26,083 bases of DNA, taken from assembly GCA_031538685.1 (NCBI GenBank), contig JAVKMA010000357.1, forward strand, positions 1 through 26,083, in the 5' to 3' direction. The position numbers and the translations under genes are program-made. Origin of the DNA: Burkholderiaceae bacterium. GTDB taxonomy: Bacteria; Pseudomonadota; Gammaproteobacteria; Burkholderiales; Burkholderiaceae. The notes below the pieces were generated by a model. It had not been told where the DNA came from and searched no databases. It saw nothing but the letters and a program-made list of their open reading frames with translations. This document shows positions 4,630 through 21,639 of this stretch, piece by piece (position 1 is the first letter of the stretch; each line of letters opens with the position of its first letter).

Positions 4630-4772
4630 GGGCAGTTCTATCAATTCATTTTTGCGGCGAATTGCTTTGTTGCGCAGTACGCGAAATCCTCACGTACTGT
4701 AGGTACGCTCCGGTTTCTGTGTGCTGTGCGCCTCGCACTTCATCCGCACATTCTGTATTTATAGAAGTGCCC
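4630..4772 (+). mobile_element. 143-bp MITE-like palindromic element, copy A
   Basis: GGGCAGTTCTAT...ATAGAAGTGCCC ends; 3 differences from the six-copy consensus. Flanked by direct repeats ATTA (4626-4629 and 4773-4776). Confidence 0.9.
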
Positions 4773-4773
4773 A

Positions 4774-5625
4774 TTAGCCTTTAACTGCGCCGGCGGTAAG
4801 GCCGCGAACAAAATAGCGCCCCGCAATAATGTAGACCACCAGCGTTGGCATTGCCGCGATGAGCGCGGCCGCCATATCGGTGTTGTACTCTTTAACGCCT
4901 GTAGAGGTGTTTACTAAGTTATTGAGCGCCGTCGTAATCGGTTGCGCGCTACTGCCTCCAAATACGACGCCAAATAGAAAGTCGTTCCAAATTTGAGTAA
5001 ATTGCCAAATGATAGAGACGACAAAAATCGGCGTTGAAATCGGTAATAAGATGCGTCCAAAAATCGTCCAGAACCCCGCACCATCAATACGCGCCGCTCG
5101 TATCAACTCATGTGAAATTGATAAAAAGTAGTTGCGGAAAAATAAAGTCGTAAACGCTAATCCGTATACCACGTGCACAAAAATCAAACCACTCATCGTA
5201 TTGGCCAGACCGAACAGGCCGAGAAAACGCGCCATGGGTAAAATAATGACCTGAAAGGGGATGAAACAACCGAGAAGCAAGCCCGTGAATAAAATTTCGC
5301 TACCGCGGAACTTCCAATGCACCAAAACATAACCGTTTAATGCGCCCACAATTGTTGAGATCAGTACTGCTGGGACGACCAGTTGAATTGAATTCCAAAA
5401 GTAAGGCGCCATTCCTTCGCAACGAACGCCGGTACAGGCGCGGCCCCAGGCTTTAATCCACGCATCCAAAGACAAGTGCACGGGGAAAGACAGCAAATTC
5501 GAATTACGAATTTCGTCGACAGTCTTAAAAGACGTTGCTAATAAAACGTAAAGAGGGATTAGGTAATACGCTGCAAAAAGAATGAGCAGAGCGTATAAAA
5601 ATAATCGAGAGGGTTTAATCAGCAT
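4774..5625 (-). CDS. Carbohydrate ABC transporter permease (MalG/GtsC-like)
   Basis: Multiple hydrophobic segments, EAA-like loop ELIRAARIDGAG, QFTQIWNDFLFG. In operon with ATPase and binding protein. Confidence 0.93.
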   Translation of the reverse strand: MLIKPSRLFLYALLILFAAYYLIPLYVLLATSFKTVDEIRNSNLLSFPVHLSLDAWIKAWGRACTGVRCEGMAPYFWNSIQLVVPAVLISTIVGALNGYVLVHWKFRGSEILFTGLLLGCFIPFQVIILPMARFLGLFGLANTMSGLIFVHVVYGLAFTTLFFRNYFLSISHELIRAARIDGAGFWTIFGRILLPISTPIFVVSIIWQFTQIWNDFLFGVVFGGSSAQPITTALNNLVNTSTGVKEYNTDMAAALIAAMPTLVVYIIAGRYFVRGLTAGAVKG

Positions 5626-5637
5626 CGCGCAGTCTCC

Positions 5638-6516
5638 TTAGCTTTTCTGTTTCGTTTCCATGTAAATCATCGGAACCAGGACCGCGATTAAGGTTAATAA
5701 CATCATCATGGCAGAGGCCGCGCCCAAACCGAGCTGGCCGCGGTTAAACGAAAATTGATACATAAAGATCGCCGGCACATCTGTTGAGGTTCCAGGGCCG
5801 CCGCCAGTTAGGGCCATGACCAAGTCAAAACTTTTCACGGCAATATGCGCCAAAATCATTGCCACGCTAAAGAAAACCGGACGAATCGAGGGAATAATGA
5901 TGAGCCAATAAATGGTTGGGGCTTTGGCGCCATCAACCTGAGCGGCTTTAAATAATTCAGCATCAACGCCGCGCAGGCCGGCGAGGAACAAGGCCATTGC
6001 AAAACCAGAGGATTGCCACAATCCCGCCAGAACCACGGTATAAATCGCCATATCGGAGTTAACGACCCAATCAAAGCTCGCGTTTTGAAAGCCCCAATCA
6101 TGCAAGACTTTTTCGACACCGATTCCAGGGTTCAGTATCCATTTCCACGCAGTTCCCGTGACGATGAAAGACAGAGCCATGGGGTAGAGGTAAATCGCAC
6201 GTAAAAAGCCTTCAGCGCGAATTTTTTGATCCAACAAAATAGCAAGCAATAGACCAATCGCGCCGGCACCAAAAACGAACAGCAGGCCAAAAATTCCCAG
6301 GTTAGTCCAACTGACCCACCAGCGATCGGTATCAAAAAGTGCAAGGTATTGAACGAATCCGGCCCATTCCCAGCGAGGCAATAAGCGCGATTCGGTAAAA
6401 GACAGCCACGCGGTAATGAGGATAAAGCCGTAAATAAAGATCAGCGCAATGAGTACCGTCGGCGAGATGACCAGTTTGGCTAAAAAATTATCGCCAAATA
6501 ATTTGATACGACTCAT
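5638..6516 (-). CDS. Carbohydrate ABC transporter permease (MalF/GtsB-like)
   Basis: LRAIYLYPMALSFIVTG, EAA-like loop ELFKAAQVDGA, FDLVMALTGGGPG, multiple transmembrane segments. Confidence 0.93.
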   Translation of the reverse strand: MSRIKLFGDNFLAKLVISPTVLIALIFIYGFILITAWLSFTESRLLPRWEWAGFVQYLALFDTDRWWVSWTNLGIFGLLFVFGAGAIGLLLAILLDQKIRAEGFLRAIYLYPMALSFIVTGTAWKWILNPGIGVEKVLHDWGFQNASFDWVVNSDMAIYTVVLAGLWQSSGFAMALFLAGLRGVDAELFKAAQVDGAKAPTIYWLIIIPSIRPVFFSVAMILAHIAVKSFDLVMALTGGGPGTSTDVPAIFMYQFSFNRGQLGLGAASAMMMLLTLIAVLVPMIYMETKQKS

Positions 6517-6544
6517 GGGGCCTCCTTAGCGGCGTTTTATTTTA

Positions 6545-6687
6545 GGGCACTTCTATCAATTCATTTTTGCGGCGAGTTGCTTTGTTGCGCAGTACGCGAA
6601 ATCCTCACGTACTGTATGTACGCTTCGGTTTCTGTGTGCTGTGCGTCCCGCACTTCATCCGCACATTCTGTATTTATAGAAGAGCCC
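6545..6687 (+). mobile_element. 143-bp MITE-like palindromic element, copy B
   Basis: GGGCACTTCTAT...ATAGAAGAGCCC ends; 5 differences from consensus. Flanked by direct repeats TTTA (6541-6544 and 6688-6691). Confidence 0.9.
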
Positions 6688-6768
6688 TTTATCAATAATT
6701 TTTATTTTTATATACTGAAAAAAACTTGAAGCACCGCGATGAAACAAGTTTTTTTCGCTATATTTTCA

Positions 6769-6801
6769 TGCCGTCCCATCGTTTAAATCGATGGGACGGC
6801 A
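6769..6801. other. Perfect 13-bp stem-loop downstream of the binding-protein gene (probable mRNA-stability element or attenuator)
   Basis: TGCCGTCCCATCG-TTTAAAT-CGATGGGACGGCA. No U-tract follows on either strand. Confidence 0.75.
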
Positions 6802-6845
6802 CAAATTAAAGCAACAAGTGACAACAACTATTTCGTTGTGCCTGC

Positions 6846-8141
6846 TTATTTTGTTGCGCCTGCTTTAGCAACTGCCGCGGCAGCGTCTTTGCTTTTCATA
6901 TCTGAACTCATGAATTTAGCAACAACGTCAACAATCGCGCCTTGAGTCGCGTTAGGAACCGCCATTCCGTGGGCAAACGAAGGCACTAAACCACCATTGG
7001 ACGATGATTTGCCCATGTCTGCCATCGACAATTTGGCACAATCGTCAAATTTGTCAGTAGGAACGCCAGAAATACGTGCAGGAATCGAACCTTTATTCAA
7101 GTTAAACACTTCTTGAAATTCTGGGCTCATTACGGTTGACGCTAATGCTAACTGAGCTTTTTGAGCGGCAGGGTCTTTTTGTTTAAACATCGCTAAAGAA
7201 TCGATGTTGAACGTGAACGACGTTGCGGTACCAGGAGCTGCGGCGCAGATATAGTCTTTGCCAGGTGCTTTACCGGCGGCAGTGAATTCGCCTTTTGCCC
7301 AGTCGCCCATAAATTGCATACCGGCTTCGCCTTTGATGACCATTGCGGTAGCCAAGTTCCAATCGCGGTTGGCCGCATCTTTATCGATGTAGGTTTTGAG
7401 TTTGGCTAAGGTATCAAATACTTTGACCATCGTTGGCGAGTTCAATGCTTTTGGATCAAGTTTGACCAAAGCGTCTTGAAAGAACTTCGCGCCACCAACA
7501 CCTAACACCACTGATTCAAAAACCGTTGCATCTTGCCAAGGTTGGCTGCCGTGAGCCAAAGGTTGAATTTTGGCTTTTTTGAATTTGTCAGCTAAAGCAA
7601 AGAATTCAGCGTAATTTTTTGGTGCTGTTTTTACGCCAACTTTTTCCATTGCTGCTTTGTTAATCCACAACCAGTTGACGCGGTGCACGTTAACAGGAGC
7701 GGCAACATATTCGCCTTTAAATTTCATGACATCGGCAACGACTTTAGGTAACAAAGTATCCCAATCTTTAGCCGCTTCATTGACGTTTGCTAAAGCGCCT
7801 TCGTTCGCCCATTCTTGAATGGTCGGGCCTTTGATTTGTGCAGCAGCAGGCGCATTGCCCGCAACGACACGTGCTTTCAAAGCAGTCATGGCCGCGTCAC
7901 CGCCACCACCGGCGATCGCAGAATCAACCCAAGTGATGCCCTGTTTTTGCATCATGCTTTTTAATTCGCCGATCGACTTCGCTTCGCCACCTGAAGTCCA
8001 CCAATGTAAAACTTCAACGCTAGGACCCGCGGGTGCTGCTGCGGTAGATGCAGACGCAGATGCGGCTGGAGCAGCTTCTTTTTTACCGCAAGCCGTTAAG
8101 GCCAGTGCCGCAAAAGATGCGACTAATAATATTTTTTTCAT
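6846..8141 (-). CDS. Sugar ABC transporter substrate-binding protein, glucose/mannose-binding GtsA/GltB-like, with lipoprotein signal
   Basis: VEVLHWWTSGGEAK, APVNVHRVNWLW, QPWQDATVFE, MQFMGDWAKGEF, FNLNKGSIPAR resemble Pseudomonas-type glucose-binding proteins. N-terminus MKK-hydrophobic-LTAC lipobox, then an Ala/Ser/Pro linker. Confidence 0.9.
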   Translation of the reverse strand: MKKILLVASFAALALTACGKKEAAPAASASASTAAAPAGPSVEVLHWWTSGGEAKSIGELKSMMQKQGITWVDSAIAGGGGDAAMTALKARVVAGNAPAAAQIKGPTIQEWANEGALANVNEAAKDWDTLLPKVVADVMKFKGEYVAAPVNVHRVNWLWINKAAMEKVGVKTAPKNYAEFFALADKFKKAKIQPLAHGSQPWQDATVFESVVLGVGGAKFFQDALVKLDPKALNSPTMVKVFDTLAKLKTYIDKDAANRDWNLATAMVIKGEAGMQFMGDWAKGEFTAAGKAPGKDYICAAAPGTATSFTFNIDSLAMFKQKDPAAQKAQLALASTVMSPEFQEVFNLNKGSIPARISGVPTDKFDDCAKLSMADMGKSSSNGGLVPSFAHGMAVPNATQGAIVDVVAKFMSSDMKSKDAAAAVAKAGATK

Positions 8142-8407
8142 TTAGAGATCTCCCTTAAAGATAAGAACACAGCGAACAGAAAATTCGCCGCACGGCACTG
8201 AACATGCGCTACTTTTTACGCGGATAAAACTTTTGCGTAATTTGAATTAACACGTTAGCAGTCTTTCGATTTTAGATGATTTTCAGGGCGCGGGTCCAAA
8301 ACGCTACAAAATAAATTTTGTATGGAGGCCTATTCTCGATGTCGAGTTTGAGTCTTTACGATACACGCTGATACACTTCGCTCCTTCATATTTTGATTAT
8401 CGTCATC

Positions 8408-9133
8408 ATGGCAGGGCATTCCAAGTGGGCTAATATTAAGCATAAAAAAGCAGCGACTGATGCAAAGCGCGGACGTATCTGGACTCGTCTTATTAAAGAG
8501 ATTACGGTGGCGGCGCGTATGGGGGGCGCTGATGCGGACAGTAATCCGCGCCTGCGTTTGGCGATGGATCGAGCCGCCGCGTCAAATATGCCCAAAGACA
8601 ATGTTCAACGTGCGATTACACGCGGTCTGGGCGAAGAGGGCGGGGCGAATTTTGAATCGGTGCGTTACGAAGGTTATGGCGCGAATGGCGTGGCCATCAT
8701 CGTTGACTGTTTGACGGATAATCGCACCCGCACCGTGGCAGAAGTTCGGCACGCGTTTTCTAAAAACGGCGGCAATATGGCGACAGAAGGCGCGGTCGCG
8801 TTTCAGTTTACCCACTGTGGACAGTTTTTGTTTGCGCCAACAACAGATGAAGGCGCCTTGATGGACGTCGCTTTGGATGCCGGCGCTGACGATGTGTCTG
8901 GAGATACTGAAGATGGTTTTGAGGTCGTGTGCGCACCGATGGATTTTGCGCGCATTCAGGCGGCGTTAAATGAAAAAAAATTAAGCGCTGAGGTGGCTCA
9001 AATCGTGATGAAGCCGTCGGTAGAAATAGAGTGTAATGCCGAGGACTCTGCCAAAACTCAAAAGTTAATTGATGCTTTGGAAAATTTAGATGATGTACAA
9101 GAGGTCTATTCCAACGCTTTGTTTAGTGAATAA
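8408..9133 (+). CDS. yebC: YebC/PmpR family protein
   Basis: [61 protein letters not shown] at 8408. Confidence 0.97.
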
Positions 9134-9138
9134 ATGGT

Positions 9139-9282
9139 GGGCACTTCTATAAATACAGAATGTGCGGCGAATTGCTTTGTTGCGCAGTACGCGAAATCCT
9201 CACGTACTGTATGTACGTTCCGGTTTCTGAGTGCTGTGCGCCGCGCACTTCATCCGCACATTCTGTATTTATAGAAGTGCCC
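9139..9282 (+). mobile_element. 144-bp variant of the MITE-like element, copy C (both arms of the right-hand type)
   Basis: 9139-9167 is the exact reverse complement of 9254-9282 (29 bp). The core matches the consensus with 2 differences. Confidence 0.9.
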
Positions 9283-9311
9283 TAAAGGGTGTAAAAAATA
9301 TTGTTTCTCTT

Positions 9312-10598
9312 ATGAAAATTCTTGTGGTGGGTAGCGGCGGGCGTGAGCACGCTTTTGCGCATAAATTATCGAGCAGCCCCAATATTCAAGCGGTGCATAT
9401 CGCTCCGGGTAATGGTGGAACCGAGGGCTTTAGTCGTTGGTTAGTCAATGTGCCGCAAACTGACATTCATGCCCTGGCAGATTTTGTCGAGCAGGAGCGA
9501 ATAGATTTTACGGTGGTCGGCCCCGAGGTGCCCCTTGCGGCTGGAATTGTCGACGTCTTTCGTGCGCGCCACTTAAAAATTTTTGGGCCAACGCAAGCCG
9601 CGGCACAACTGGAGTCGTCCAAAGATTTTGCCAAAGCCTTTATGGCCCGTCACAAGATTCCGACGGCGCGTTATCAAACGTTTACTGATGCCGCTTTAGC
9701 GCGTGCGTATGTTGCGCAAGAAGGTGCGCCAATCGTGGTCAAGGCCGACGGCCTAGCGGCAGGAAAAGGGGTCATCGTTGCTCAAACTATTGATGAGGCG
9801 AATCAAGCGATCGATGCGATGTTGGCAGATAACCGCTTGGGCGCTGCGGGTGCGCGAGTGGTGATTGAGCAGTTTATTCAGGGTGTTGAGGTGAGTTTTA
9901 TTGTGATGGCCGATGGCACTAATGTGTTGCCACTTGCCACTTCGCAAGATCACAAGCGCCTATTAAATGACGATATGGGCCCCAATACCGGCGGTATGGG
10001 CGCGTATTCACCAACGCCTTTTGTGACGCCGCCTTTGCATGCGCGAATTTTGCGCGAGATTATTAAACCCGTGATTAAAGGAATGAGCGCCGAAGGCATG
10101 CCTTATAGCGGTTTTTTGTACGCGGGCATCATGATTGATCCAGAGGGTAATCCTTACACTTTGGAGTTCAACTGTCGTTTAGGCGATCCGGAAGCGCAAG
10201 TTATTTTGCCGCGCTTAAAAAGCGATTTGGTGAGCGTTTTACGCAAAGCGTTTGAAGGGCGTTTGGATACGGTTGAGTTGGACTGGGATCGTCGCGTTGC
10301 GGTCGGGGTCGTCATTGCGGCGCCAGGTTATCCTGATGCGCCAGAATTGGGTGGCGAGATCGCTCCTTTGCCCAGAAACACCGATGACAGCTTTATTTAT
10401 CACTCGGGGACGAGGATTAAAGATAATCAATTGCAGGTCTCGGGCGGCCGTGTATTAACCGCGGTGGGCTTGGCGGATACTTTGAAAATGGCGCAAAAAA
10501 ACGCCTATGATTTGGTCGAAGGCATTTTATTTAAAGGCGCGCAGTGGCGCACTGATATTGCCGCTAAAGCAAATAAGGCCGCGCAAAAAAACAATTAG
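9312..10598 (+). CDS. purD: Phosphoribosylamine--glycine ligase PurD
   Basis: MKILVVGSGGREHA, VVGPEVPLAAGIVD, AAQLESSKDFAK, VVKADGLAAGKGV, QDHKR, GPNTGGMGAYSP, LEFNCRLGDPEAQ, GGRVL. True start ATG 9312; the upstream extension is MITE sequence. Confidence 0.97.
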   Translation: MKILVVGSGGREHAFAHKLSSSPNIQAVHIAPGNGGTEGFSRWLVNVPQTDIHALADFVEQERIDFTVVGPEVPLAAGIVDVFRARHLKIFGPTQAAAQLESSKDFAKAFMARHKIPTARYQTFTDAALARAYVAQEGAPIVVKADGLAAGKGVIVAQTIDEANQAIDAMLADNRLGAAGARVVIEQFIQGVEVSFIVMADGTNVLPLATSQDHKRLLNDDMGPNTGGMGAYSPTPFVTPPLHARILREIIKPVIKGMSAEGMPYSGFLYAGIMIDPEGNPYTLEFNCRLGDPEAQVILPRLKSDLVSVLRKAFEGRLDTVELDWDRRVAVGVVIAAPGYPDAPELGGEIAPLPRNTDDSFIYHSGTRIKDNQLQVSGGRVLTAVGLADTLKMAQKNAYDLVEGILFKGAQWRTDIAAKANKAAQKNN

Positions 10599-10670
10599 AA
10601 ATCACGCTATTGACTTGTCGGCGATTTGTCGGCTCATGGTCCAGCGAGGGACTTGCTTATTGCAACTTCC

Positions 10671-11414
10671 TTATTCGGGTTTCCCTAAAATAAAAATACA
10701 CGGAATTTTATGCAGCGCGGGCAGGGGCGCGAGCGCCCACTCTTTAATTGAGCGAGTCATCACGAACTCCTTGGGGTCAGTGAGTTGCGCGGCGATGGTT
10801 AATAGGGTTTTTTCATTGCAGTGCTGAATCATTTTTTTTAACAGTGATTCGTTACGAAACGGCGTTTCAATAAAAATCTGACTTTGTCTTTCGGCGTGAG
10901 CGCGCGATTCAAAACGTTTTAATGCACTGATACAAGCGGCGTCACTAATCGGTAAATAACCGTTAAACGCAAAAGATTGACCGTTTTGTCCGCTCGCCAT
11001 CAAGGCCAACATAATGGCGCAGGGGCCAATTAAAGGCTCAACGGGAATTCCAGCGACATGCGCGGCAGCAATCAAGGGCGCGCCCGGGTCAGCGATGGCA
11101 GGGGCGCCTGCTTCTGATAACAAACCCACGGCGAGGCCTTTTTTCAGCGGCGCGAGTAATGTCGCGATGGCGTCTGAGGGCGTGTCTTTGTTGAACTCTT
11201 GTAGGTTTAACTGTTGAATTGGCGCGGCTAAGGGCGAGAGTGTATTGACGGACTGCAAAAAAGCGCGGGCGCTTTTGGCGTTTTCCACATAAAAACAGGT
11301 GAGCGAGCTGATGCGCGAAATCACCCCGGCCGGTAAAGATTGCAAAATGGCTTCGGGTGTTGGTGGTACCAGCGGCGTTGGGATCAAATATAAATGAGCA
11401 GGTTTAGAGAGCAT
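10671..11414 (-). CDS. SAM-dependent methyltransferase, tetrapyrrole-methylase/RsmI-like family
   Basis: LYLIPTPL, FYVENAKSARAFL, GLLSEAGAPAIADPGA, PLIGPCAIMLALMASGQNGQSFAFNGYLP, QIFIETPFRN. Confidence 0.88.
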   Translation of the reverse strand: MLSKPAHLYLIPTPLVPPTPEAILQSLPAGVISRISSLTCFYVENAKSARAFLQSVNTLSPLAAPIQQLNLQEFNKDTPSDAIATLLAPLKKGLAVGLLSEAGAPAIADPGAPLIAAAHVAGIPVEPLIGPCAIMLALMASGQNGQSFAFNGYLPISDAACISALKRFESRAHAERQSQIFIETPFRNESLLKKMIQHCNEKTLLTIAAQLTDPKEFVMTRSIKEWALAPLPALHKIPCIFILGKPE

Positions 11415-11471
11415 AGCAAGCGTAGAGAGGAAGTGCCAGTATCATAGGGTAGTGACGACGTTCAAAATTAT

Positions 11472-11614
11472 GGGCACTTATATCAATTCATTTTTGCGGT
11501 GAATTGCTTTGTTGCGCAGTACGCGAAATCCTCACGTACAGTATGTACGCTCCGGTTTCTGTGTGCTGTGCGCCGCGCACTTCATCCGCATATTCTGTAT
11601 TTATAGAAGTGCCC
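11472..11614 (+). mobile_element. 143-bp MITE-like palindromic element, copy D
   Basis: GGGCACTTATAT...ATAGAAGTGCCC ends; 4 differences from consensus. Flanks TTAT/TAAA are not a duplication. Sits between divergent genes. Confidence 0.9.
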
Positions 11615-11643
11615 TAAAAATAAAACAATAAGGAAGAGAGTTT

Positions 11644-13131
11644 ATGAATTCATGGAGAGAACAAGCACAAAAATTATCGATCGATGGACGCGCGTTTATC
11701 AATGGTAAACGAGTCGCCGCACGGACTGTTTTCGATTGTGTGTCGCCGCGAGATGGGCGCGTTTTGTGTCAGGTGACGCGCGGCGATGCCCGCGATATCA
11801 ACGACGCGGTTGCTGCCGCACGACAAAGCTTTAATCGCGGCGTGTGGTCGCAAATGTCACCGCGCGCGCGTAAAGATGTGCTTATTGCGTTTGCGGGCTT
11901 GATGCGCAGTAACGCGCCAGAACTTGCTTTGTTGGAAAGTTTAGATATGGGTAAGCCGGTCGCGTATAGCCAAAAAATCGACGTTGGTAGCGCCGCGCAT
12001 TGCATCCGCTGGTACGGCGAAGCAATTGATAAATGCTACGATGAAATCGCGCCGACGTCGGCAAACAGTTTAGCGATGATTACTCGCGAACCGATGGGGG
12101 TGGTCGGCGCAATTGTGCCGTGGAATTACCCCATGCTGATGGCGTCGTGGAAAGTCGCCCCTGCTTTGGCGATGGGCAATAGCGTGGTGTTAAAGCCGTC
12201 AGAAAAATCGCCATTAAGCGCGCTGCGTTTGGCCGAATTGGCGATGGAGGCGGGTTTGCCCGAAGGCGTTTTGAATGTTGTTCCAGGGTTTGGTGATGAA
12301 GCGGGTAGTGCTTTGGCGTTACACATGGATGTTGATTGCATTGCCTTTACAGGCTCGACGCGTGTTGGCAAAATGATTACTCAATATGCAGGACAGTCGA
12401 ATTTAAAGCGCGCGTATACGGAGTTGGGCGGCAAGTCGCCATTCATTATTCTTGAGGACGCTGATATCGAGCGCGCGACAGAGTCTTGTGTAGGCTCGAT
12501 TTTCTTTAATCAGGGCGAAAGTTGTAATGCGCCTTCGCGCCTGTTGGTACAGCGCAAACATTACGATTCGGTGTTGGCGCGCGCGGCAGAGCTGGCCAAA
12601 GACTATCAACCGGCAGATCCTTTGGATGACGCTACGGTGATGGGGGCCTTGGTTGATAAAGGGCAGCTGGATACGGTGATGCGCTATATCGAAAGTGGCA
12701 AAAAACAAGGCGCGGCCTTGATCTGTGGCGGCGAGGCGGTGACAATTAACGGCGCCGGATTTTTTGTGCAGCCGACGATTTTTGGTGACGTGCGTCCAGA
12801 AATGACCATTGCCTGTGAAGAAATTTTTGGCCCGGTTTTGTCGGTGATTCCGTTTGATACACCCGCCGATGCGATTGCTTTGGCGAATGACTCGTCATAC
12901 GGTTTGGCGGCGTCGGTGTGGACGCAAAATATCGATTTGGCGCATCAAAGCGCGCGCGCGCTACGTGCGGGAACCGTCCATGTGAATTGCTATGATGAAG
13001 ACGACATTACGGTGCCTTTTGGTGGGTACAAACAGTCTGGCAATGGACGCGATAAATCTTTGCATGCGCTGGAGAAATACAGCGAGTTGAAAACGACCTG
13101 GATTAAATTTCAAGACATGAAAAAATCTTGA
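11644..13131 (+). CDS. NAD(P)-dependent aldehyde dehydrogenase, PuuC-like (gamma-glutamyl-gamma-aminobutyraldehyde dehydrogenase subfamily)
   Basis: PWNYPMLMASWKVAPALAMGN, KPSEKSP, FTGST, ELGGKSP (catalytic Glu), FNQGESCNA (catalytic Cys), EEIFGPV, PFGGYKQSGNGRDKS. RBS-like AGGAAGAG upstream. Substrate is not certain. Confidence 0.9.
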   Translation: MNSWREQAQKLSIDGRAFINGKRVAARTVFDCVSPRDGRVLCQVTRGDARDINDAVAAARQSFNRGVWSQMSPRARKDVLIAFAGLMRSNAPELALLESLDMGKPVAYSQKIDVGSAAHCIRWYGEAIDKCYDEIAPTSANSLAMITREPMGVVGAIVPWNYPMLMASWKVAPALAMGNSVVLKPSEKSPLSALRLAELAMEAGLPEGVLNVVPGFGDEAGSALALHMDVDCIAFTGSTRVGKMITQYAGQSNLKRAYTELGGKSPFIILEDADIERATESCVGSIFFNQGESCNAPSRLLVQRKHYDSVLARAAELAKDYQPADPLDDATVMGALVDKGQLDTVMRYIESGKKQGAALICGGEAVTINGAGFFVQPTIFGDVRPEMTIACEEIFGPVLSVIPFDTPADAIALANDSSYGLAASVWTQNIDLAHQSARALRAGTVHVNCYDEDDITVPFGGYKQSGNGRDKSLHALEKYSELKTTWIKFQDMKKS

Positions 13132-13164
13132 TCAATTTAAAAAACGTAACAGTCAATTTTTAGT

Positions 13165-13205
13165 ACGGCACTTCTGTTTTTACAAAGCAGAGTGCGTGTA
13201 TTTTG
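13165..13205 (+). terminator. Bulged hairpin followed by a T-rich stretch, possible terminator of the aldehyde dehydrogenase gene
   Basis: AC-G-GCAC-T-TCTG-(TTTTTACAAAG)-CAGA-GTGC-GT, followed by GTATTTT. Confidence 0.45.
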
Positions 13206-13238
13206 TGAGTAATATTGCTTGGTTTAAGGACATCGTTA

Positions 13239-14426
13239 ATGAATTTTTTTAGTCCCTGTCCACGAGGCTTGGAGCCCGTTTTAGTTGAAGAGTTGCGTCG
13301 ATTGGGCGCGCAAAAAGTCGAAGAGACTGCCGGAGGTGTCGGATTTCAAGGCGACTGGTCGCTTGTCTATCGCGTCAATTTACATTCGCGCATTGCCAGT
13401 CGTGTTTTACTGGAAGTTGCGCGCGGCGCTTATCGCTCTGAAGACGATATTTATCGTTTTGCTTCGGCGCAAAAATGGGAAGATTGGTTTGAGCCGGATA
13501 CGACTTTTCGCGTCGATACCACGGCGGTACAGACGAATTTAAAAAGTACGGCATTTGTGACTTTGAAAGTCAAGGATGCCGTGTGTGACCGGATGCGTGC
13601 TAAATTTCAATGCCGCCCCGATGTGAATACCTTGAATCCAAAAGTTCGCGTCTCGATTTTTTTATACCGCGAAACAATGATTTTATACATCGACACCTCT
13701 GGTGAGGCCTTATTTAAGCGCGGTTGGCGCATGGAAAAAGGTGATGCGCCCCTGCGTGAAAATTTAGCCGCAGGCTTGTTGGCGCTAGCGGGATGGCGGG
13801 TCGGCACGCCTTTGTTTGATCCGATGTGTGGTTCTGGGACTTTATTGGTCGAAGCTGCGCAACAGTGCTTAGGAATTCCTGCAGGGTCTTTGCGGCACTT
13901 TGGTTTTCAACATTTACGTTTTTATGATCGCGATCAATGGATGGCATGCAAAGCCGAAGTCCCCGCGCCAGACGCAACAAAAACCAATTTGTCTTTATTT
14001 GGCAGCGATATTTCGGGCGATATGGTGACGGTCAGTGCGGACAATTTATTGCGCGCCGGCGTGTCCGCATCAATTCCCTTGAAACAGGTTGAGGCACAAT
14101 TTATCGAAGCGCCCGCAGCTTCGGGCATTATTGTGACCAATCCGCCCTACGGTTCACGCTTGTCAGTGCGCGGCGATGCGACAATGGATACGGATGAGCG
14201 TTACGAGGCTTTTTTCAACGCGCTCGCGACGACATTAAAACAGGGTTTTAGCGGCTGGCAGGTATTTATTTTGTCGGCCGATCGCGACTTGCCGCATTTA
14301 CTGCGCTTGAAAGAGTCGCGCAAAACGCCGATTTTTAACGGTGCGATTGAATGTCGGTTTTTCCGCTTTGATATGGTTGCCGGCGGCAACCGAAAATCGA
14401 CGCCGGTGACGAAGATTCAAGAATAA
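13239..14426 (+). CDS. rlmL: THUMP-domain class I SAM-dependent RNA methyltransferase, RlmL-like (23S rRNA m2G2445; no fused RlmK half)
   Basis: NLHSRIASRVL, KVKDAVCD, DTSGEALFKRGWR, APLRENLAAGLL, DPMCGSGTLLVEAA, GSDI, IVTNPPYG, FNGAIECR. AAGGA RBS at 13226-13230 before ATG 13239. Confidence 0.88.
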   Translation: MNFFSPCPRGLEPVLVEELRRLGAQKVEETAGGVGFQGDWSLVYRVNLHSRIASRVLLEVARGAYRSEDDIYRFASAQKWEDWFEPDTTFRVDTTAVQTNLKSTAFVTLKVKDAVCDRMRAKFQCRPDVNTLNPKVRVSIFLYRETMILYIDTSGEALFKRGWRMEKGDAPLRENLAAGLLALAGWRVGTPLFDPMCGSGTLLVEAAQQCLGIPAGSLRHFGFQHLRFYDRDQWMACKAEVPAPDATKTNLSLFGSDISGDMVTVSADNLLRAGVSASIPLKQVEAQFIEAPAASGIIVTNPPYGSRLSVRGDATMDTDERYEAFFNALATTLKQGFSGWQVFILSADRDLPHLLRLKESRKTPIFNGAIECRFFRFDMVAGGNRKSTPVTKIQE

Positions 14427-14432
14427 GTTGGG

Positions 14433-14577
14433 GGTATCAGTGCAGGAATTTTGGTGCTGGCGAGGACTTGGGTCTCGGACCTGAACTTTCTCGACGAACT
14501 TCCTCGAATAAGGACTTGAAATCTCGATAGGGCGACTTACAACCCTATTCAGGTGAAGCAAGAGATACCAGAATAGG
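14433..14577 (+). ncRNA. Candidate structured intergenic element of unknown class
   Basis: Complementary pairs GGTATC/GATACC (14433-38/14564-69), ACCTGAA/TTCAGGT (14479-85/14548-54), ATAGGG/CCCTAT (14527-32/14543-48), CGAGG/TCTCG (14461-65/14473-77). No known RNA family recognised. Confidence 0.25.
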
Positions 14578-14712
14578 CGCCAATCCTTTCTTTTGCTATT
14601 CCTGTTGTTATTGTTTTTGCTTTTGCCATTTCAGGCTCGAATTATTGACAAAGTCTCGTGCGAGTTTTTACGCCGTCTTTTGTTGTCTTTGCTGTTTTTT
14701 ATAGAGACTTAT

Positions 14713-17301
14713 ATGACTGATTCGACCACTCCTCTTTTTGACAGTATTCCCTCAAACGATTCGGCTGATTCAGTTGAGGTGTCTGCCGCAGATCATAAAA
14801 ATGATGGTGCCAATCCGATTATTGTGTTGGATGCCACGCCGGATACCTTGCCATTGCTGCCCTTGCGCGATGTGGTCGTTTTTCCACATATGGTGTTGCC
14901 ATTGTTTGTCGGGCGGAATAAATCCGTTCGTGCTTTGGAAAGCGCTACGGCGCAAGGAACACAAATTGTTTTGGTCGCGCAAAAAAAATCGGTTGAAGAT
15001 GAACCCTTAATCGGTGATTTTTACCAAGCCGCTTGTTTGGCGACGGTTTTGCAAATCATGAAGTTGCCTGATGGCACCTTGAAAGTTCTGGTTGAAGGCA
15101 AATCGCGCGTGATGATTACCGAGACTATCGAGGTCGATGAGCACTATCGTGTTCGTGTCGAACCTGTCGCGGACCCAGAGTTGGGCCAGGACAGCGATAG
15201 TTTGTTGCAAATAGAGGGTTTGCGCCGCACTTTGTTTGATCAGTTTGAGCAGTATGTAAAGTTGGGTAAAAGGGTCTCGCCGGAGATCATGAATATGTTG
15301 ACCGGCATTGATGAGCTGTCGCGCTTTGCCGACACGATTGCTGCGCATTTACCGATTAAACCAGAGCAGAAACAAAAAATATTAAGCGAGCATGATTTGG
15401 TCGCGCGCATGGAGTTGTTGCTCGATTTGATCGAAGGTGAAAAAGAAATTTTGACCATCGAGAAAAAAATTCGTGGCCGCGTTAAAAAGCAAATGGAAAA
15501 ATCACACCGTGATTACTATTTGTCAGAGCAGGTCAAAGCGATTCAAAAAGAAATGGGCGATGATGAAGTCGCCGATTTAGATCAAATTGAAAAGAAAATA
15601 AAAGCCGCCAAAATGCCCAAAGAGGCGCATGAAAAAGCAATGTCGGAATTAAAAAAGCTCAAGCTAATGGCGTCGATGTCGTCCGAGGCGACGGTGGTGC
15701 GCAATTATTTGGACGCCTTGATTGCCTTGCCTTGGAGCAAAAAAACCAAAACGAATCCGGATCTTGATCAAGCTGAAGCGATTTTGGACTTGGATCATCA
15801 CGGGCTGACCAAAGTTAAAGAGCGCATCGTTGAATATCTCGCCGTACAAAATCGCGTGAACAAAATGCGCGCGCCGATTTTGTGTTTGGTTGGGCCGCCG
15901 GGCGTGGGCAAAACCTCTTTGGGGCAATCAATTGCCAAAGCGACCTCGCGTAAATATGTGCGCATGGCCTTGGGCGGCGTTCGTGACGAAGCCGAAATTC
16001 GCGGCCATCGACGTACTTATATTGGCTCGATGCCGGGGAAAATTTTACAAAGCTTGGCTAAGGCGGGAGCGCGCAATCCTTTATTTTTGTTGGATGAAGT
16101 TGACAAAATGGGGTCCGACTTTCGAGGGGATCCTTATGCGGCATTGTTAGAGGTGTTGGACCCCGAACAAAATCACACTTTCTCAGATCATTACATCGAT
16201 GTTGATTTTGATTTGTCCGACGTGATGTTTGTGGCGACCTCGAATTCGTACAACATTCCGCCAGCCCTATTGGATCGGATGGAGATTATTCGTTTGTCCG
16301 GTTATACCGAAGATGAAAAAGTCAGTATCGCGCACAAACATTTAATTCCGAAGCAAATTCAAGCCAATGGTTTGAACGACGCGGAAATCACGATTGACGA
16401 ATCGGCGGTGCGCGATGTGATTCGCTATTACACGCGTGAAGCGGGGGTGCGTTCTTTAGAGCGCGAATTGGCGCGGATTTGCCGCAAAGTGGTGCGCAGT
16501 AAGGTATCTGCGGTGAAAAAAAATGCGGGGCAAAAAGACGCCGCGCGAATAAAACAAGCGGAACAAGCGAAACAAACGCGGGTGAGTTCGGCCAATTTAG
16601 AAACGTATTTAGGCGTACAAAAATATGATTTTGGTTTAGCTGAATCTGAAAATAAAGTCGGACAAGTCGTTGGCTTGGCGTGGACCGAAGTGGGCGGTGA
16701 CTTGCTGACCATCGAAAGTTTGATCATGCCGGGCAAGGGCAATATTTTAACGACGGGGACTTTGGGTGATGTGATGAAAGAGTCCATTGCGGCCGCGCGC
16801 AGTATTGTGCGTAGCCGTGCGGCACAGTTTGGCGTGAAAGATGATGTCTTTGAAAAAACTGATTTACACGTTCATGTGCCGGAGGGCGCGACACCGAAAG
16901 ACGGCCCCTCCGCAGGGATTGCGATGACGACGGCGTTGGTGTCGGCGTATAGCAAAATTCCCGTGCGCGCGGATGTGGCGATGACCGGTGAAATTACTTT
17001 GCGTGGCGAAGTCTTGCCGATTGGTGGTTTGAAAGAGAAGTTATTGGCGGCGCATCGCGGTGGCATTAAGACGGTTTTGATTCCGCATAAAAGCATTAAA
17101 GACTTGATCGAAATTCCCGACAACATCAAAAATGTTTTAGAAATTATTCCCGTACGCTATATCGAAGAAGTGTTGCGTTACGCCTTGGCAAGCGCGCCGA
17201 TACCCTTGCCAGAAGTGGTTGCAGCGGGGTTGTCGGTACCGCAAGCGGCGGGAATTACCTTGGACAATCCGCAATGGATGGACCATGGCGTCAAGCATTA
17301 A
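14713..17301 (+). CDS. lon: ATP-dependent protease La (Lon)
   Basis: [13 protein letters not shown], Walker [30 protein letters not shown] (catalytic Ser), [17 protein letters not shown] (catalytic Lys). Start ATG 14713; the upstream ORF extension is a low-complexity T-rich leader. Confidence 0.97.
16552..16578 (+). repeat. 9-bp tandem repeat x3 within lon (KQA-EQA-KQT)
   Basis: AAACAAGCG GAACAAGCG AAACAAACG. Confidence 0.7.
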
Positions 17302-17324
17302 ACCCAACTTTTGTGCGGGTCGTT

Positions 17325-17351
17325 TTTGCTTGTTTCTTTGCTTGTTTCTTT
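17325..17351. repeat. 12-bp perfect tandem duplication in the lon-ruvA convergent gap
   Basis: TTTGCTTGTTTC TTTGCTTGTTTC TTT. Confidence 0.8.
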
Positions 17352-17379
17352 ATTGGTATCGCTGATTTTTAAACGCGGT

Positions 17380-17958
17380 TTACGTTTTAGCTAAAAACGT
17401 CAGCGCTTGACGAATGCCGTCCGAGACCGTCGCACCAGCAGGTAATTGCCCGATTGCGGCGCGAACTTCGCGTTCGGAATAACCCAGGGCGGTTAAGGCT
17501 TGAGAAATATCATCTTGACTGGATGCTGGCGCACCATTGGCGCGCGACGCCACCGAGCCGCTCCACGCGCCTTTGAGTTCGAGCAGCAAACGTTCGGCGG
17601 TTTTTTTGCCGATACCAGGGACTTTGGTCAATCGTCCGGCGTCTTGCATCACCACGGCATTGCGCAAATCATCGCTGGACATGCCTGACAAAATCGACAA
17701 AGCGGTGCGCGCACCGACGCCGGAAATTTTGATCAGTTGGCGGAAGGTCGTACGTTCGTCTTCGCGCAGAAAACCAAATAACAATTGCGCGTCTTCACGG
17801 ACGACAAAGTGCGTGAGCAATACCAGATGCTGGCCGGTTTCTGGCAGGTCGTAAAACGAACTCATGGGGACACTGACTTCATAACCGACGCCGTGACAAT
17901 CAATGACGACATTGGGTGGTGATTTGGCAACAAGTGTGCCGGTTAAGCGTTCGTACAT
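17380..17958 (-). CDS. ruvA: Holliday junction branch migration protein RuvA
   Basis: [70 protein letters not shown]. Confidence 0.97.
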
Positions 17959-18075
17959 AGTGAATAAGAAAAAATGTAATCCGAGAGTTGATGAAAATGG
18001 GTGACGAAAAGCCTTTTTCAGGACTCGCCTTTAACTCGCCGATAATAGCCGCTCGTCTTTTTACTTTAACCGCTG

Positions 18076-20142
18076 ATGCCTGTGTTGCAGATTGCTGAGC
18101 CTAATCAAAATAGCGTGCGAAGCGCGCTACTAAATGACGCGCAAAACGGTGCACAAAACGATGCGCAAAACGGGACGCCAAAAAGTGCGTCTGCGCCGCG
18201 TCGTTTGGTGGTTGGTATTGATCTGGGGACAACGCATTCTTTAGTGGCCACCGTGAAAAACGACATTGCGCAAATTCTGCCAGATGCGCAGGGTCGACCA
18301 CTGTTGCCCTCTGTGGTTCATTATGCGACATCGGGAACTCTGGTCGGTTACACCGCGCAAGCCTATTCTGCCAGCGACGCATTGAATACGATTGTTTCGG
18401 TTAAGCGTCTGATGGGGAAAGGTTTTGATGACGTGGCGACTTTGACGCATTTACCGTATCTGTGGGCGCGCGATGGTCAGACTGGTTCGCTTGGTCAGAT
18501 GGGTCAGATCGATGCGACATCAGATTCAAATATCAATACGAAGTCAAATATAAATCCGAAGCGAGTGATCAGCGATCACGACAGCGTGCGGATTCGCACG
18601 CGTGCGGGCGATAAAACACCGATTGAAATCTCCGCTGATATTTTGCGCGTCTTGCGCGATCGCGCCGAACAACAGTGTGGTGACACATTGCATGGCGCGG
18701 TGATTACGGTACCCGCCTATTTTGATGAAGGTCAGCGCCAAGCGACCAAAAATGCGGCGCAATTGGCCGGAATTCATGTATTGCGCTTGTTGAGTGAGCC
18801 GACCGCTGCCGCATTGGCGTATGGTTTGGATCAAGGCATGCAAGGCGTGTATGCGGTCTACGATTTGGGCGGCGGGACGTTTGATATTTCTTTATTGCGT
18901 TTATCCGACGGCGTTTTTGAAGTCGTTGCGACCGGAGGAAATGCGCAATTGGGGGGCGATGATTTTGATCATCGTCTGTATTGTTATTTGATCGAGTGCT
19001 CATCTTTAGCCCCGCCTTCACCGTCGGATGCGCGCCGTTTGATGGCAGAGGCGCGTCGTTGTAAAGAATTGTTATCAACCCATGCCGAAGTTCCCGTAAA
19101 TCTGCTACTGGACAGCGAAGAGCGAGTGCAAACGGTGTTGACGCAAACCTTATTCTGGCAGCTGACCGAAGCCTTAGTGGGCCTGACGGTACAGTCGGTC
19201 AAAGGCGTTTTGCGCGATGGAAGCTTGTCATTAAATGAAATTGACGGGGTAATTTTGGTTGGCGGTGCGACGCGGATGCCCCATGTGCGCCGCGCGGTGG
19301 AGCAGTTTTTTGGGCGGACGGCTTTATGCAGTTTAGACCCCGATCAAGTCGTTGCCTTAGGCGCGGCAAATCAGGCCGCTAAATTGGCGGGACAATTGAT
19401 GGGACAATCGGGGCGCCAAGACAATTGGTTGTTGTTAGATGTGATTCCACTGTCTTTGGGTTTGGAAACAATGGGCGGCTTGGTGGAAAAAATTATTCCA
19501 CGTAATAGTCCGATTCCCTGTGCGTACTCGCAAGAATTTACGACGTATAAAGACGGTCAAACCGCGTTGGCGCTGCATGTGGTGCAAGGCGAACGCGAGT
19601 TGGTTGCTAATTGCCGATCTTTGGCGCGGTTTGAATTGCGCGGCATTCCGCCGATGTTGGCGGGCTTGGCGCGAATTCGCGTCAGTTTTCAAGTCGATGC
19701 GGATGGTTTGTTATCGGTGAGCGCGATCGAGTCGCGATCACAAGTGAGCGCCCAAATCAGCGTCAAACCCAGTTATGGACTGAGCGCCACAGACATCAAT
19801 ACTATGTTGGCGCAAGTGCTGGATTGTGCAGAAGAGGATAAGGCGCAAAAACAATACGCCGAAGCGGCCTTAGATGCGCAAAAAATGATGGACGCGGTGA
19901 ATCGCGCGATCGAGCAAGACGCCAATTTATTATCGGTAGATGAGGATGCGGCGATTTCGCAAAGCCTCGCCCAATTGACTGAAAGTTTGCGGCTTCGTGC
20001 GGCACTACCGCAAGTGCGGGAACACATGCGCCATTTACGGCAGTGCACCGAAGCCTTTGCGCAAAGGCGGATGAATGCGCATGTGCGCAAAGCCCTGACG
20101 GGACAGCACATCGATACCGTCTCGGTGGAGTCGGCGCCGTAA
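18076..20142 (+). CDS. hscA: Fe-S cluster assembly Hsp70 chaperone HscA (with insertions)
   Basis: LQIAEP N-terminus, GIDLGTTHSLVA, VITVPAYFDEGQRQATK, YDLGGGTFDIS, LLLDVIPLSLGLETMGG, QEFTTYKDGQT, RGIPPM, FAQRRMN C-terminus typical of HscA rather than DnaK. Confidence 0.93.
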   Translation: MPVLQIAEPNQNSVRSALLNDAQNGAQNDAQNGTPKSASAPRRLVVGIDLGTTHSLVATVKNDIAQILPDAQGRPLLPSVVHYATSGTLVGYTAQAYSASDALNTIVSVKRLMGKGFDDVATLTHLPYLWARDGQTGSLGQMGQIDATSDSNINTKSNINPKRVISDHDSVRIRTRAGDKTPIEISADILRVLRDRAEQQCGDTLHGAVITVPAYFDEGQRQATKNAAQLAGIHVLRLLSEPTAAALAYGLDQGMQGVYAVYDLGGGTFDISLLRLSDGVFEVVATGGNAQLGGDDFDHRLYCYLIECSSLAPPSPSDARRLMAEARRCKELLSTHAEVPVNLLLDSEERVQTVLTQTLFWQLTEALVGLTVQSVKGVLRDGSLSLNEIDGVILVGGATRMPHVRRAVEQFFGRTALCSLDPDQVVALGAANQAAKLAGQLMGQSGRQDNWLLLDVIPLSLGLETMGGLVEKIIPRNSPIPCAYSQEFTTYKDGQTALALHVVQGERELVANCRSLARFELRGIPPMLAGLARIRVSFQVDADGLLSVSAIESRSQVSAQISVKPSYGLSATDINTMLAQVLDCAEEDKAQKQYAEAALDAQKMMDAVNRAIEQDANLLSVDEDAAISQSLAQLTESLRLRAALPQVREHMRHLRQCTEAFAQRRMNAHVRKALTGQHIDTVSVESAP
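18136..18171 (+). repeat. 12-bp tandem repeat x3 in the hscA N-terminus (DAQN-GAQN-DAQN)
   Basis: GACGCGCAAAAC GGTGCACAAAAC GATGCGCAAAAC. Confidence 0.8.
18493..18561 (+). repeat. 9-bp and 18-bp tandem duplications in an hscA insertion (GQM-GQI; SNINTK-SNINPK)
   Basis: GGTCAGATG GGTCAGATC at 18493-18510; TCAAATATCAATACGAAG TCAAATATAAATCCGAAG at 18526-18561. Confidence 0.8.
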
Positions 20143-20172
20143 ATAAGGCATCGCGTATTTTTTAATGCATTA

Positions 20173-20315
20173 GGGTACTTCTATAAATACAGAATGTGCG
20201 GATGAAGTGCGCGGCGCACAGCACACAGAAACCGGAGCGTACCTACAGTACGTGAGGATTTCGCGTACTGCGCAACAAAGCAATTCGCCGCAAAAATGAA
20301 TTGATAGAAGTGCCC
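20173..20315 (-). mobile_element. 143-bp MITE-like palindromic element, copy E (inverted relative to A-D)
   Basis: Reverse complement of the consensus with 2 differences; shares the TGTAG loop variant with copy A. Flanks ATTA/ATGA (3/4 match). Confidence 0.9.
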
Positions 20316-20337
20316 ATGAATAATTTTTTCTTTTGAT

Positions 20338-21465
20338 ATGCCTTTTGCTAAAACCTCTGCGCTGACACGACCGAGTTTTTTATTTCGGTTGCAACAGCAT
20401 TTACGCATCTTCGATCCGATTTTGTTGCTGATTTTGTTTGTGATCATGTGCTTGAGTTTGCTGACTTTGTTCTCGGCGAGCTTTGTGTTTGAAGGACGCT
20501 TTTTGGGGCATTTACGCAATTTGTCCGTCGCATTTTTGGTGATGTGGGTGGCGGCAATGGTGCCGCTGAGTTGGTGGGTGCGCTTGGCTTTGCCGCTTTT
20601 TATTGGCGGATTGTTGTTATTGTTTGGCGTGGCGGCTTTTGGTTTAATTAAAAATGGTGCGCGCCGTTGGTTGGACCTGGGTATCGTGTTACAGCCTTCA
20701 GAGATTATGAAAATTGCGGCGCCGATGATGCTGGCTGCGTTTTTTCATCGCTATGGCGACTACTTAAAACCCAGGCACTTCTTCGGTGCCTTTTTAATTC
20801 TGTTGGTGCCTTTCGCCTTGATTGTGCGTCAACCCGATTTAGGCACGGCGACTTTAGTTTTGATGTCGGGTTTTCAAGTGATTTTTTTGGCAGGCCTTTC
20901 GTGGCGCCTGATCGTCGGACTGGGCGTTGTTGGTGTCGTCAGTGCGCCTTTTGCTTGGAATTTTTTACACGGTTACCAACAGCAACGCATATTAACTTTT
21001 TTAAATCCAGAGAGTGACGCTTTAGATAAAGGCTTTCATATTATTCAATCGGTGATCGCCATTGGTTCAGGAGGCTTTATCGGCAAAGGTTGGTTAAAGG
21101 GGACGCAGACACATTTGCAATTTATTCCAGAGCGGACTACCGACTTTATTTTTGCGGCGTTCTCCGAAGAGTTTGGATTTATCGGTGCTGCGATTTTGTT
21201 GCTGATGTATTTTTTATTGATTGGTCGCGCTTTTTTTATCGCCAGTCATGCGCCGACACTGTTCTCGCGACTGTTAAGCGGCTCGATTGCGATGCAATTG
21301 TTTACCTATGTGTTTGTGAACATCGGCATGGTCATGGGGATTGTGCCGGTGGTGGGCGTGCCTTTGCCATTTATGAGTTACGGCGGTACGGCGCTGATGA
21401 CCTTAGCACTGAGCGTCGGTATTTTGATGGGAGTTAATCGCGCTCGGCATTTAATTCAGACTTAA
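20338..21465 (+). CDS. rodA: Rod shape-determining protein RodA (SEDS peptidoglycan glycosyltransferase)
   Basis: NGARRWLDLG, QPSEIMKIA, RQPDLGTA, GFHIIQSVIAIGSGG, PERTTDFIFAAFSEEFGF, VNIGMVMGIVPVVGVPLPFMSYGGT. Confidence 0.96.
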   Translation: MPFAKTSALTRPSFLFRLQQHLRIFDPILLLILFVIMCLSLLTLFSASFVFEGRFLGHLRNLSVAFLVMWVAAMVPLSWWVRLALPLFIGGLLLLFGVAAFGLIKNGARRWLDLGIVLQPSEIMKIAAPMMLAAFFHRYGDYLKPRHFFGAFLILLVPFALIVRQPDLGTATLVLMSGFQVIFLAGLSWRLIVGLGVVGVVSAPFAWNFLHGYQQQRILTFLNPESDALDKGFHIIQSVIAIGSGGFIGKGWLKGTQTHLQFIPERTTDFIFAAFSEEFGFIGAAILLLMYFLLIGRAFFIASHAPTLFSRLLSGSIAMQLFTYVFVNIGMVMGIVPVVGVPLPFMSYGGTALMTLALSVGILMGVNRARHLIQT

Positions 21466-21496
21466 AAACCGCTTCAATATTTTGATATTTTCTAAT

Positions 21497-21639
21497 GGGC
21501 ACTTCTCTCAATACAGAATGTGCGGATGAAGTGCGCGGCGCACAGCACACAGAAACCGAAACGTACATACAGTATGTGAGGATTTCGCGTACTGCGCAAC
21601 AAAGCAATTCGCCGCAAAAATGAATTGATAGAAGTGCCC
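21497..21639 (-). mobile_element. 143-bp MITE-like palindromic element, copy F (inverted relative to A-D)
   Basis: Reverse complement of the consensus with 5 differences. Flanked by direct repeats TAAT (21493-21496 and 21640-21643). Confidence 0.9.

Follow-up and report, generated by a model that had tools for sequence, protein, structure and literature searches.

The stretch of DNA considered here, hereafter the window, is a whole contig of 26,083 nucleotides (JAVKMA010000357.1, assembly GCA_031538685.1) from a Burkholderiaceae bacterium. NCBIfam names every large open reading frame (ORF) in it as a housekeeping gene, and these genes include mnmG-rsmG-parA-parB, an ABC sugar transporter operon, yebC, purD, lon, ruvA, hscA, rodA and others. 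Between them lie six copies of a 143-bp repeat, which are the subject of this text. We will argue that the repeat is a family of MITEs (miniature inverted-repeat transposable elements) of the IS5 type, gene-less and mobilised in trans, a reading to which we give a probability of about 0.9. The host assembly is a metagenome bin of 1.72 Mb in 397 contigs, 85% complete and with 47.8% G+C; its genus holds two species and belongs to a family with genomes of 0.2 to 7 Mb. The genome of the other species (G001, the sister genome) amounts to 2.0 Mb in 80 contigs, and its nucleotide identity is 91-93% over the three large aligned blocks of the window.

The six copies were recovered with a repeat finder and a MAFFT alignment, at the very positions where the earlier note on this DNA, made from the letters of the window alone, had placed them:

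Copy A, 4630..4772, + strand: 143 nt, flanks ATTA/ATTA; lies in the ABC operon, between its permease and ATPase genes.
Copy B, 6545..6687, + strand: 143 nt, flanks TTTA/TTTA; separates the substrate-binding-protein gene from the permease genes.
Copy C, 9139..9282, + strand: 144 nt, with no target-site duplication (TSD), between yebC and purD.
Copy D, 11472..11614, + strand: 143 nt, in the divergent promoter region of an rsmI-like gene and an aldehyde dehydrogenase gene.
Copy E, 20173..20315, - strand: 143 nt, inverted, between hscA and rodA.
Copy F, 21497..21639, - strand: 143 nt, inverted, flanked by ATTA/ATTA, between rodA and an SDR oxidoreductase gene.

All six are intergenic; A to D point one way and E and F are reverse-complemented, a point that the earlier note had left unstated. 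Copies A and B sit in the same ABC transporter operon, copy A at 1 nt from the stop codon of the permease gene, and copy B folds into a full-length rod (-58.4 kcal/mol, z -5.9). The consensus ends in terminal inverted repeats (TIRs), GGGCACTTCTAT and ATAGAAGTGCCC, which are perfect over 12 bp, as had been reported from the letters, and which continue imperfectly to about 28 bp. Over 16 bp, 15 positions match, and all 16 do so in a variant with G at position 131 (131G). The exact 4-bp direct repeats described at A, B and F (ATTA, TTTA and ATTA) are indeed there. The flanks of copy E, read on the + strand, are ATTA/ATGA and match at 3 of 4 bases, those of copy D are TTAT/TAAA, and neither C nor D has an exact repeat.

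Copy C also has a replaced left arm, which had been noticed at first sight: its positions 13-24 are the reverse complement of the right arm. This change arose in the present lineage, after the species split, because the sister ortholog has a normal left arm and an intact TAAA/TAAA. At positions 9125-9145 of the window, an extra TGGT (four bases) stands between the old TAAA duplication and the replaced arm, so that the present flanks of the copy are TAAATGGT / TAAAGGGT. Simple template-switch models do not account for this rearrangement.

A census of the whole assembly gave 134 BLASTN matches, among which 82 are full length, 36 are cut by contig ends and the rest are internal partials. Together they cover 16.5 kb, which is about 1% of the DNA and amounts to one match every 12.9 kb. 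The window is therefore about twice as dense as the genome average, and the one copy per 4 kb that had been put forward as possibly representative does not hold, the true average being one per about 13 kb. The modal size is 143 nt and the range 141-171; the longer forms (150-171 nt) are tandem duplications, in which either GTATGTAC of the apical loop or CTGTGTG units are repeated. As in the window, the copies keep to the spaces between genes, with 100 out of 105 being intergenic in a genome that is 88% coding. The 5 others lie within ORF calls of 97-235 aa that are short or dubious and that we do not credit as genes, and the idea of in-frame insertion into coding sequences was rejected. Contact with stop codons is frequent: in 18 of the 83 cases in which the copy lies downstream of a gene, the distance to the stop is at most 2 nt. 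Genome-wide, the orientation of the copies shows no bias with respect to either neighbour: 41 point the same way as the upstream gene and 42 the opposite way, and for the downstream gene the counts are 38 vs 45.

The insertion signature is clear as well. An exact 4-bp TSD flanks 55 of the 77 full copies with flanks (71%), whereas 2000 shuffles of the flanks gave 7.7 such copies on average and 17 at most; 15 further copies have it with one mismatch. The duplicated tetramers follow a T-W-A-W consensus (TTTA, TTAA, TAAA, TAAT, TTAT). Such a pattern of copies is far beyond chance.

The comparison with the sister species adds the empty sites. Among 40 relatives, the element was found only in this one, in a similar number of candidates. 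The earlier note had held that a lack of empty sites in close relatives would speak against transposition; in the sister genome, the sites of copies D and E are empty, those of A and C are occupied, and those of B and F fall at contig breaks inside a MITE. At the site of copy E, the sister genome has a single TTGA, reading ...GATGC-TTGA-ATAATTTT.... The reverse comparison covered 385 kb of G001, a copy being informative when both its flanks lie on one contig of the present genome (G000). It gave 29 informative copies, with 16 sites occupied here, 10 empty and 3 unclear. At 8 of the 10 empty sites, exactly one copy of the flanking 4-mer is present (TAAT, TGAA, TTTA, ATAA, TTCA, TTAT and others). 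Precise empty sites with a single 4-mer are the classic signature of transposition, and together with the TSDs of the 55 copies they bear out the claim of a non-autonomous element. In all 16 shared insertions the orientation agrees between the two species (p = 3e-5 if insertion were independent), and these insertions thus predate the species split.

No transposase is found in the window, as had been said before. A search for the TIR outside full copies showed that contigs C45, C73, C142 and C165 begin with GGGCACTTCTAT(A/C)AATAG. In C45, C73 and C142, this end is followed by a broken IS5-type open frame, that of C73 matching the NCBIfam family transpos_IS5_4 (E 1e-13), while C165 retains only the first ~110 nt. 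All these remnants of an insertion sequence (IS) are frameshifted or internally deleted, and the sister genome likewise has fragments only. When species-representative genomes were scanned with the remnant, transposases with 63-78% amino-acid identity to it came up in Polaromonas, Thiobacillus, Nitrotoga and other metagenome-assembled genomes (MAGs), mostly betaproteobacterial. There the IS is 1259-1306 bp long, carries GGGCACTTCTATAAAT at both ends and is flanked by 4-bp direct repeats such as TAAA, TACA, AAGA, TAAT, ATTA and TTAA. Its 356-aa product scores 280 bits on transpos_IS5_4 (NF033581; cut-off 140) and matches DDE_Tnp_1 and DUF772 in Pfam. Examples of this unnamed IS5 clade are found in a Thiobacillus sp. 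MAG (JBAQND010000220.1), a Lysobacteraceae MAG (JAUXUI010000044.1) and Candidatus Nitrotoga sp. BS (NZ_CAKMLL010000071.1).

The 16 terminal nucleotides of this IS are those of the right end of the MITE, and 15 of the 16 are those of its left end. The 4-bp direct repeats of the IS stand at AT-rich sites, and the 4-bp target of the MITE is TWAW. Since the clade shares both the ends and the 4-bp AT-rich duplications, the MITE uses the ends, the TSD length and the target type of a defined IS5-family clade. The difference is that the IS is autonomous, with a DDE transposase of its own. The earlier note had guessed at an IS5-family parent, and with the ends, the duplications and the broken remnants that guess has proved sound. 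A protein search in PLSDB for a name of the IS returned only the generic 'IS5 family transposase', at less than 60% identity.

Another transposase gene of the assembly was considered as a parent and rejected, as it is of a different IS5 type and has unrelated ends. It lies at C171:6002-6883 (locus L070), is E. coli IS5-like (301 bits on transpos_IS5_4) with a frameshift near its N-terminus, and is followed downstream by a tandem repeat of GAGTG(C/T)TT units.

From these elements we propose the following history. An IS5-family DDE transposase, provided in trans, would bind and cleave at the MITE ends, and insertion would occur at AT-rich tetramers of the form TWAW, in many cases at the TAA of a stop codon, with duplication of 4 bp. 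The element itself would be a chimera, in which about 17 nt at each end match the ends of the IS, while the centre is an unrelated hairpin of about 60-80 nt, related to the widespread palindromes of the sX9 type described below. We infer that, in this two-species genus, an sX9-like palindrome of low copy number gained IS5-type ends and was then amplified to about 140 copies per genome, with activity both before and after the species split. The family is probably stranded today, because both genomes hold only broken remnants of the cognate IS, unless an intact one resides in unassembled DNA. That MITEs derive from IS5 elements is textbook material, and the basic finding is an ordinary one; a MITE family that would have outlived its transposase in two sister species is one of the points that give it some value.

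Several points weigh against this history, or at least against its simplest form. Six-frame searches found no intact cognate transposase in either genome, the bin being 85% complete. Beyond about 17 nt, MITE and IS are no longer similar, so that the former does not simply derive from the latter by deletion. Copies C and D have no clean TSD. The bin is fragmented, as its 397 contigs attest, and some interior variants are possibly assembly mixtures, and an intact IS may have been lost if its length was below the cut-off for contigs. Finally, shared copies differ by 3.4% between the two species and other intergenic DNA by 8.5%, much less divergence than junk DNA should show and a difference that does not follow from a plain selfish-MITE model; we come back to this below.

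The closest documented analogue is MITEPsy1 of Pseudomonas syringae pv. phaseolicola, which goes with the IS5-family element ISPsy2 and whose transposition was shown experimentally (Bardaji et al. 2011, PMC3189936). It is also short and gene-less; its TIRs are almost the same as those of an IS from the IS5 family, its mobilisation is assumed to occur in trans, and it duplicates 4 nt at sites of the CTAG/YTAA type (PMC3189936). In contrast, it is 100 nt long, its TIRs are GGAAGGTCTGAAAAAGCC, and its 6 copies share a genome with an intact parent IS (PMC3189936). The present element has 143 nt, about 140 copies, only broken remnants of its parent and an sX9-like core.

The comparison can be extended to the well-known intergenic palindromes of other bacteria. 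Correia elements (NEMIS) of Neisseria, and the REP/BIME and ERIC elements of enterobacteria, are repeated palindromes that lie between genes, measure about 100-150 nt and occupy roughly 1% of a genome of about 2 Mb. They are often found inside operons or beside stop codons, and their orthologous copies are unusually conserved. They resemble the present element in abundance and placement, but not in their ends or insertion signature: Correia elements duplicate TA and have 26-bp TIRs, and REP and ERIC have neither TSDs nor IS-type ends. A Correia element is rejected on a 4-bp TSD in place of TA and on ends that differ from the Correia TIR as generally described. No sequence similarity to Correia, REP or ERIC was seen, these families being set apart by their general descriptions.

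The centre of the element leads to another family of repeats. Weak DNA matches to it occur in other families of the order, the best one being 85% identical over 48 nt (E 6e-9). At the matching loci, repeats of about 145 nt form a rod; their outer arms are different, but the apical hairpin is the same, and compensatory changes from C-G to T-A are found in it. A degenerate pattern of the 33-nt core occurs in 11 of 400 other genomes of the order, and the reversed control in none; an exact pattern of 36 nt had no match in the JGI metagenome contigs. Three of the eight core loci that were scanned elsewhere match the Rfam family RF02228 (sX9) at 51-64 bits, for a gathering score of 44. The MITE copies themselves stay below this threshold, with 20.5-22.4 bits in the window and 27.8 for the best one in G001, and a scan of the window gave no Rfam match at gathering thresholds. 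In an alignment of 13 sX9-type repeats with two MITE copies, 25 of the 37 predicted pairs are compensated on both sides, and one U-G pair is invariant across the families of the order. The MITE and sX9 have in common the apical hairpin with the stem next to it, which make up about 60-80 nt of the MITE centre, and the rod of about 145 nt. The sX9-type repeats elsewhere differ by their other outer arms and by their number, which is 2-7 in each genome.

The earlier note had not recognised the element as a named one. A search of the accessible paper library with the 12-nt ends returned only unrelated primer matches and no description of it, so that much stands, but its core does resemble a family with a name. 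sX9 was first described as a 75-nt transcript of Xanthomonas (PMC3300014), and it is among the most abundantly annotated bacterial small RNAs (PMC9029176). Such an abundance as an annotated 'sRNA' fits a repeat. The sX9 entries of the databases are linked here to mobile DNA, with the same hairpin core occurring with different ends, and the MITE is to be masked when intergenic RNAs are annotated. It also accounts for about 5% of the contig ends of the assembly (36/794).

Three sX9-type repeats of a genome from another family of the order (G035, loci L084, L093 and L096) have 16-bp ends GACTTCTTTCGGAACC with TA on both sides, which suggests a TA-duplicating, IS630-like MITE with the same hairpin core. 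Taking this a step further, we can imagine the sX9-type hairpin as a portable cargo module, which joins different transposase-specific ends and is then kept unusually constant, either by selection or by copy-to-copy or intra-hairpin correction. This is a speculative proposal, and we regard it as rather unlikely. If it were true, old insertions would stay 96.6% identical between species while neutral sites drift to 81%, and the genus would be a natural system in which to study the homogenisation or domestication of a bacterial MITE.

The age of the copies is where the simple picture is most strained. The mismatches between the two species, by class of DNA, are as follows:

Shared MITE copies: 3.4% (112/3304).
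One orthologous IS remnant: 5.8% (28/482).
ORF calls (coding): 6.0% (15,928/265,817).
Other alignable intergenic DNA: 8.5% (2,237/26,431).
Fourfold-degenerate sites of the window: 19.4% (558/2875).

The MITE copies differ from every one of the other classes (Fisher p <=0.013). Within the genome, the mean distance from a copy to the consensus is 3.0 substitutions (2.1%), and lineage-specific copies are no nearer to it than shared ones (3.0 vs 2.5 differences). Since many insertions are older than the species split, youth alone does not explain why the copies look young. Both genomes are short-read assemblies, and some blending of copy interiors is possible; at least part of the signal from the orthologs is real, because they have ten private variants in common.

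Gene conversion among copies, together with correction templated by the hairpin, fits this slow divergence best. It would come in addition to the MITE reading: ectopic conversion among the about 140 copies, and template switching inside the hairpin, would homogenise insertions that are old, as the common orientation of all 16 shared ones indicates. That the bodies of shared copies diverge less than every other class, and that lineage-specific copies are no closer to the consensus, both go in this direction. So does the location of the differences between orthologs: they cluster at sites that are polymorphic in the family, and about 19 of 80 fall at positions 131, 73 and 104. In particular, 131G is found in 18 of 48 copies here and in 0 of 37 in the sister genome, and it restores pairing with C13, extending the perfect TIR to 16 bp. 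The left arm of copy C, which became complementary to its right arm after the split, is of the same kind. Position 73, in the apical loop, also settles a smaller matter. Copies A and E do both have G there, as had been seen, but the subfamilies that this had suggested are not stable, the sister ortholog of copy A having T. If homogenisation is at work, it is incomplete, as the private variants of the orthologs attest and as orthologous copies differ at 4.25 positions and non-orthologous ones at 6.1 (eight gap-free pairs of 143 nt). Moreover, the orthologous IS remnant is itself only 5.8% diverged, which makes the neutral yardstick uncertain, and the short-read assembly of a 143-nt repeat can by itself blend copies. 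On balance we find concerted evolution plausible, at somewhat less than even odds.

The other way to slow divergence is purifying selection, on the body of the element or on its sX9-like hairpin, which would have been domesticated as a hairpin that stabilises or terminates transcripts or as a protein-binding site. Besides the little divergence of the shared copies, such a role would be in keeping with the rod fold (z about -6 on both strands), with the compensatory changes of the core hairpin and its invariant U-G pair, and with the position of copies A and B between cistrons of the ABC operon in both species. Against it stand the absence of orientation bias, the sX9-like core that is not better conserved than the arms within the genus (about 4.1% vs 2.6% differences), and a scan for promoter and terminator consensus sequences inside copies, which gave nothing consistent, with counts at or below shuffle expectation. 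Many sites are also empty in one species, with no sign of a loss of function. Purifying selection is thus possible but has little support, given the lack of orientation bias, of a better conserved core and of promoter or terminator signals, and we consider domestication unlikely. Should long-read genomes confirm the low divergence of shared copies, homogenisation and domestication will become testable on this MITE.

The order of the operon (window 4630-6687) is binding protein, copy B, two permeases, copy A and ATPase. This placement between cistrons, conserved in the sister species, recalls that of the REP elements located in malE-malF.

The earlier note had rather seen in these copies a recent expansion; taken as a very recent burst and nothing else, this reading would make every one of them young and neutral. 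The short distance to the consensus and the lineage-specific insertions do point that way, and a part of the expansion is recent in this sense; but 16 of the 29 informative copies, more than half, are present in both species in the same orientation, while fourfold sites have diverged by 19%, and a recent burst alone, which these shared insertions contradict, is improbable.

Last, a REPIN-type element, for whose movement a single-copy RAYT (Y1) transposase and not a DDE enzyme would be responsible, would account for a palindromic rod and for the weak single-copy match to Y1_Tnp (PF01797) in each genome (21-23.5 bits, at or just below the cut-off). This reading is highly improbable. REPINs are without target duplication, whereas 71% of the MITE copies show a 4-bp TSD and the empty sites are precise; the MITE ends are identical to those of IS5-family elements, and the Y1 gene is not adjacent to copies. 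The ORFs with this match lie at C264:7149-7421 in G000 and at C80:9923-10195 in G001, where a RAYT/IS200-like gene is possible.

Having retained the IS5-type MITE as our reading, we can turn to some minor observations on the family. Both genomes contain mini-elements of 40 bp, made of the 38-nt right arm followed by CC. They are found at C19:3342-3381, C101:149-188 and C382:774-813 in G000, and near 16246 of C56 and near 10292 of C70 in G001 (mini-element loci L205-L210). Their loci are non-orthologous and are flanked by perfect 4-bp direct repeats (ATTA, TAAA and TTTT in G000; ATTA and TTAA in G001). Either they are a transposing family that uses the inner pseudo-end GGGCACTTCATC, or they result from repeated deletions between GAAGTGC direct repeats.

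Another observation concerns a site occupied by a MITE in G001 (L123:5903-6045). At about 1451-1461 of C384 in G000, this site reads ATTTAATGAG-GGGCCCC-ATTTAATGAG, that is, a 10-bp direct repeat around what appear to be the outermost bases of both MITE ends. This structure may be an excision or deletion scar.

Finally, the segment C165:1527-3332 of G000, which contains a MazF/PemK-like toxin gene and one end of an IS5 remnant, is 99.4% identical over 1.8 kb to contig C44 of G001 (locus L053), for a genome average of about 93%. This near-identity may reflect a recent exchange between the two species, or cross-binning.

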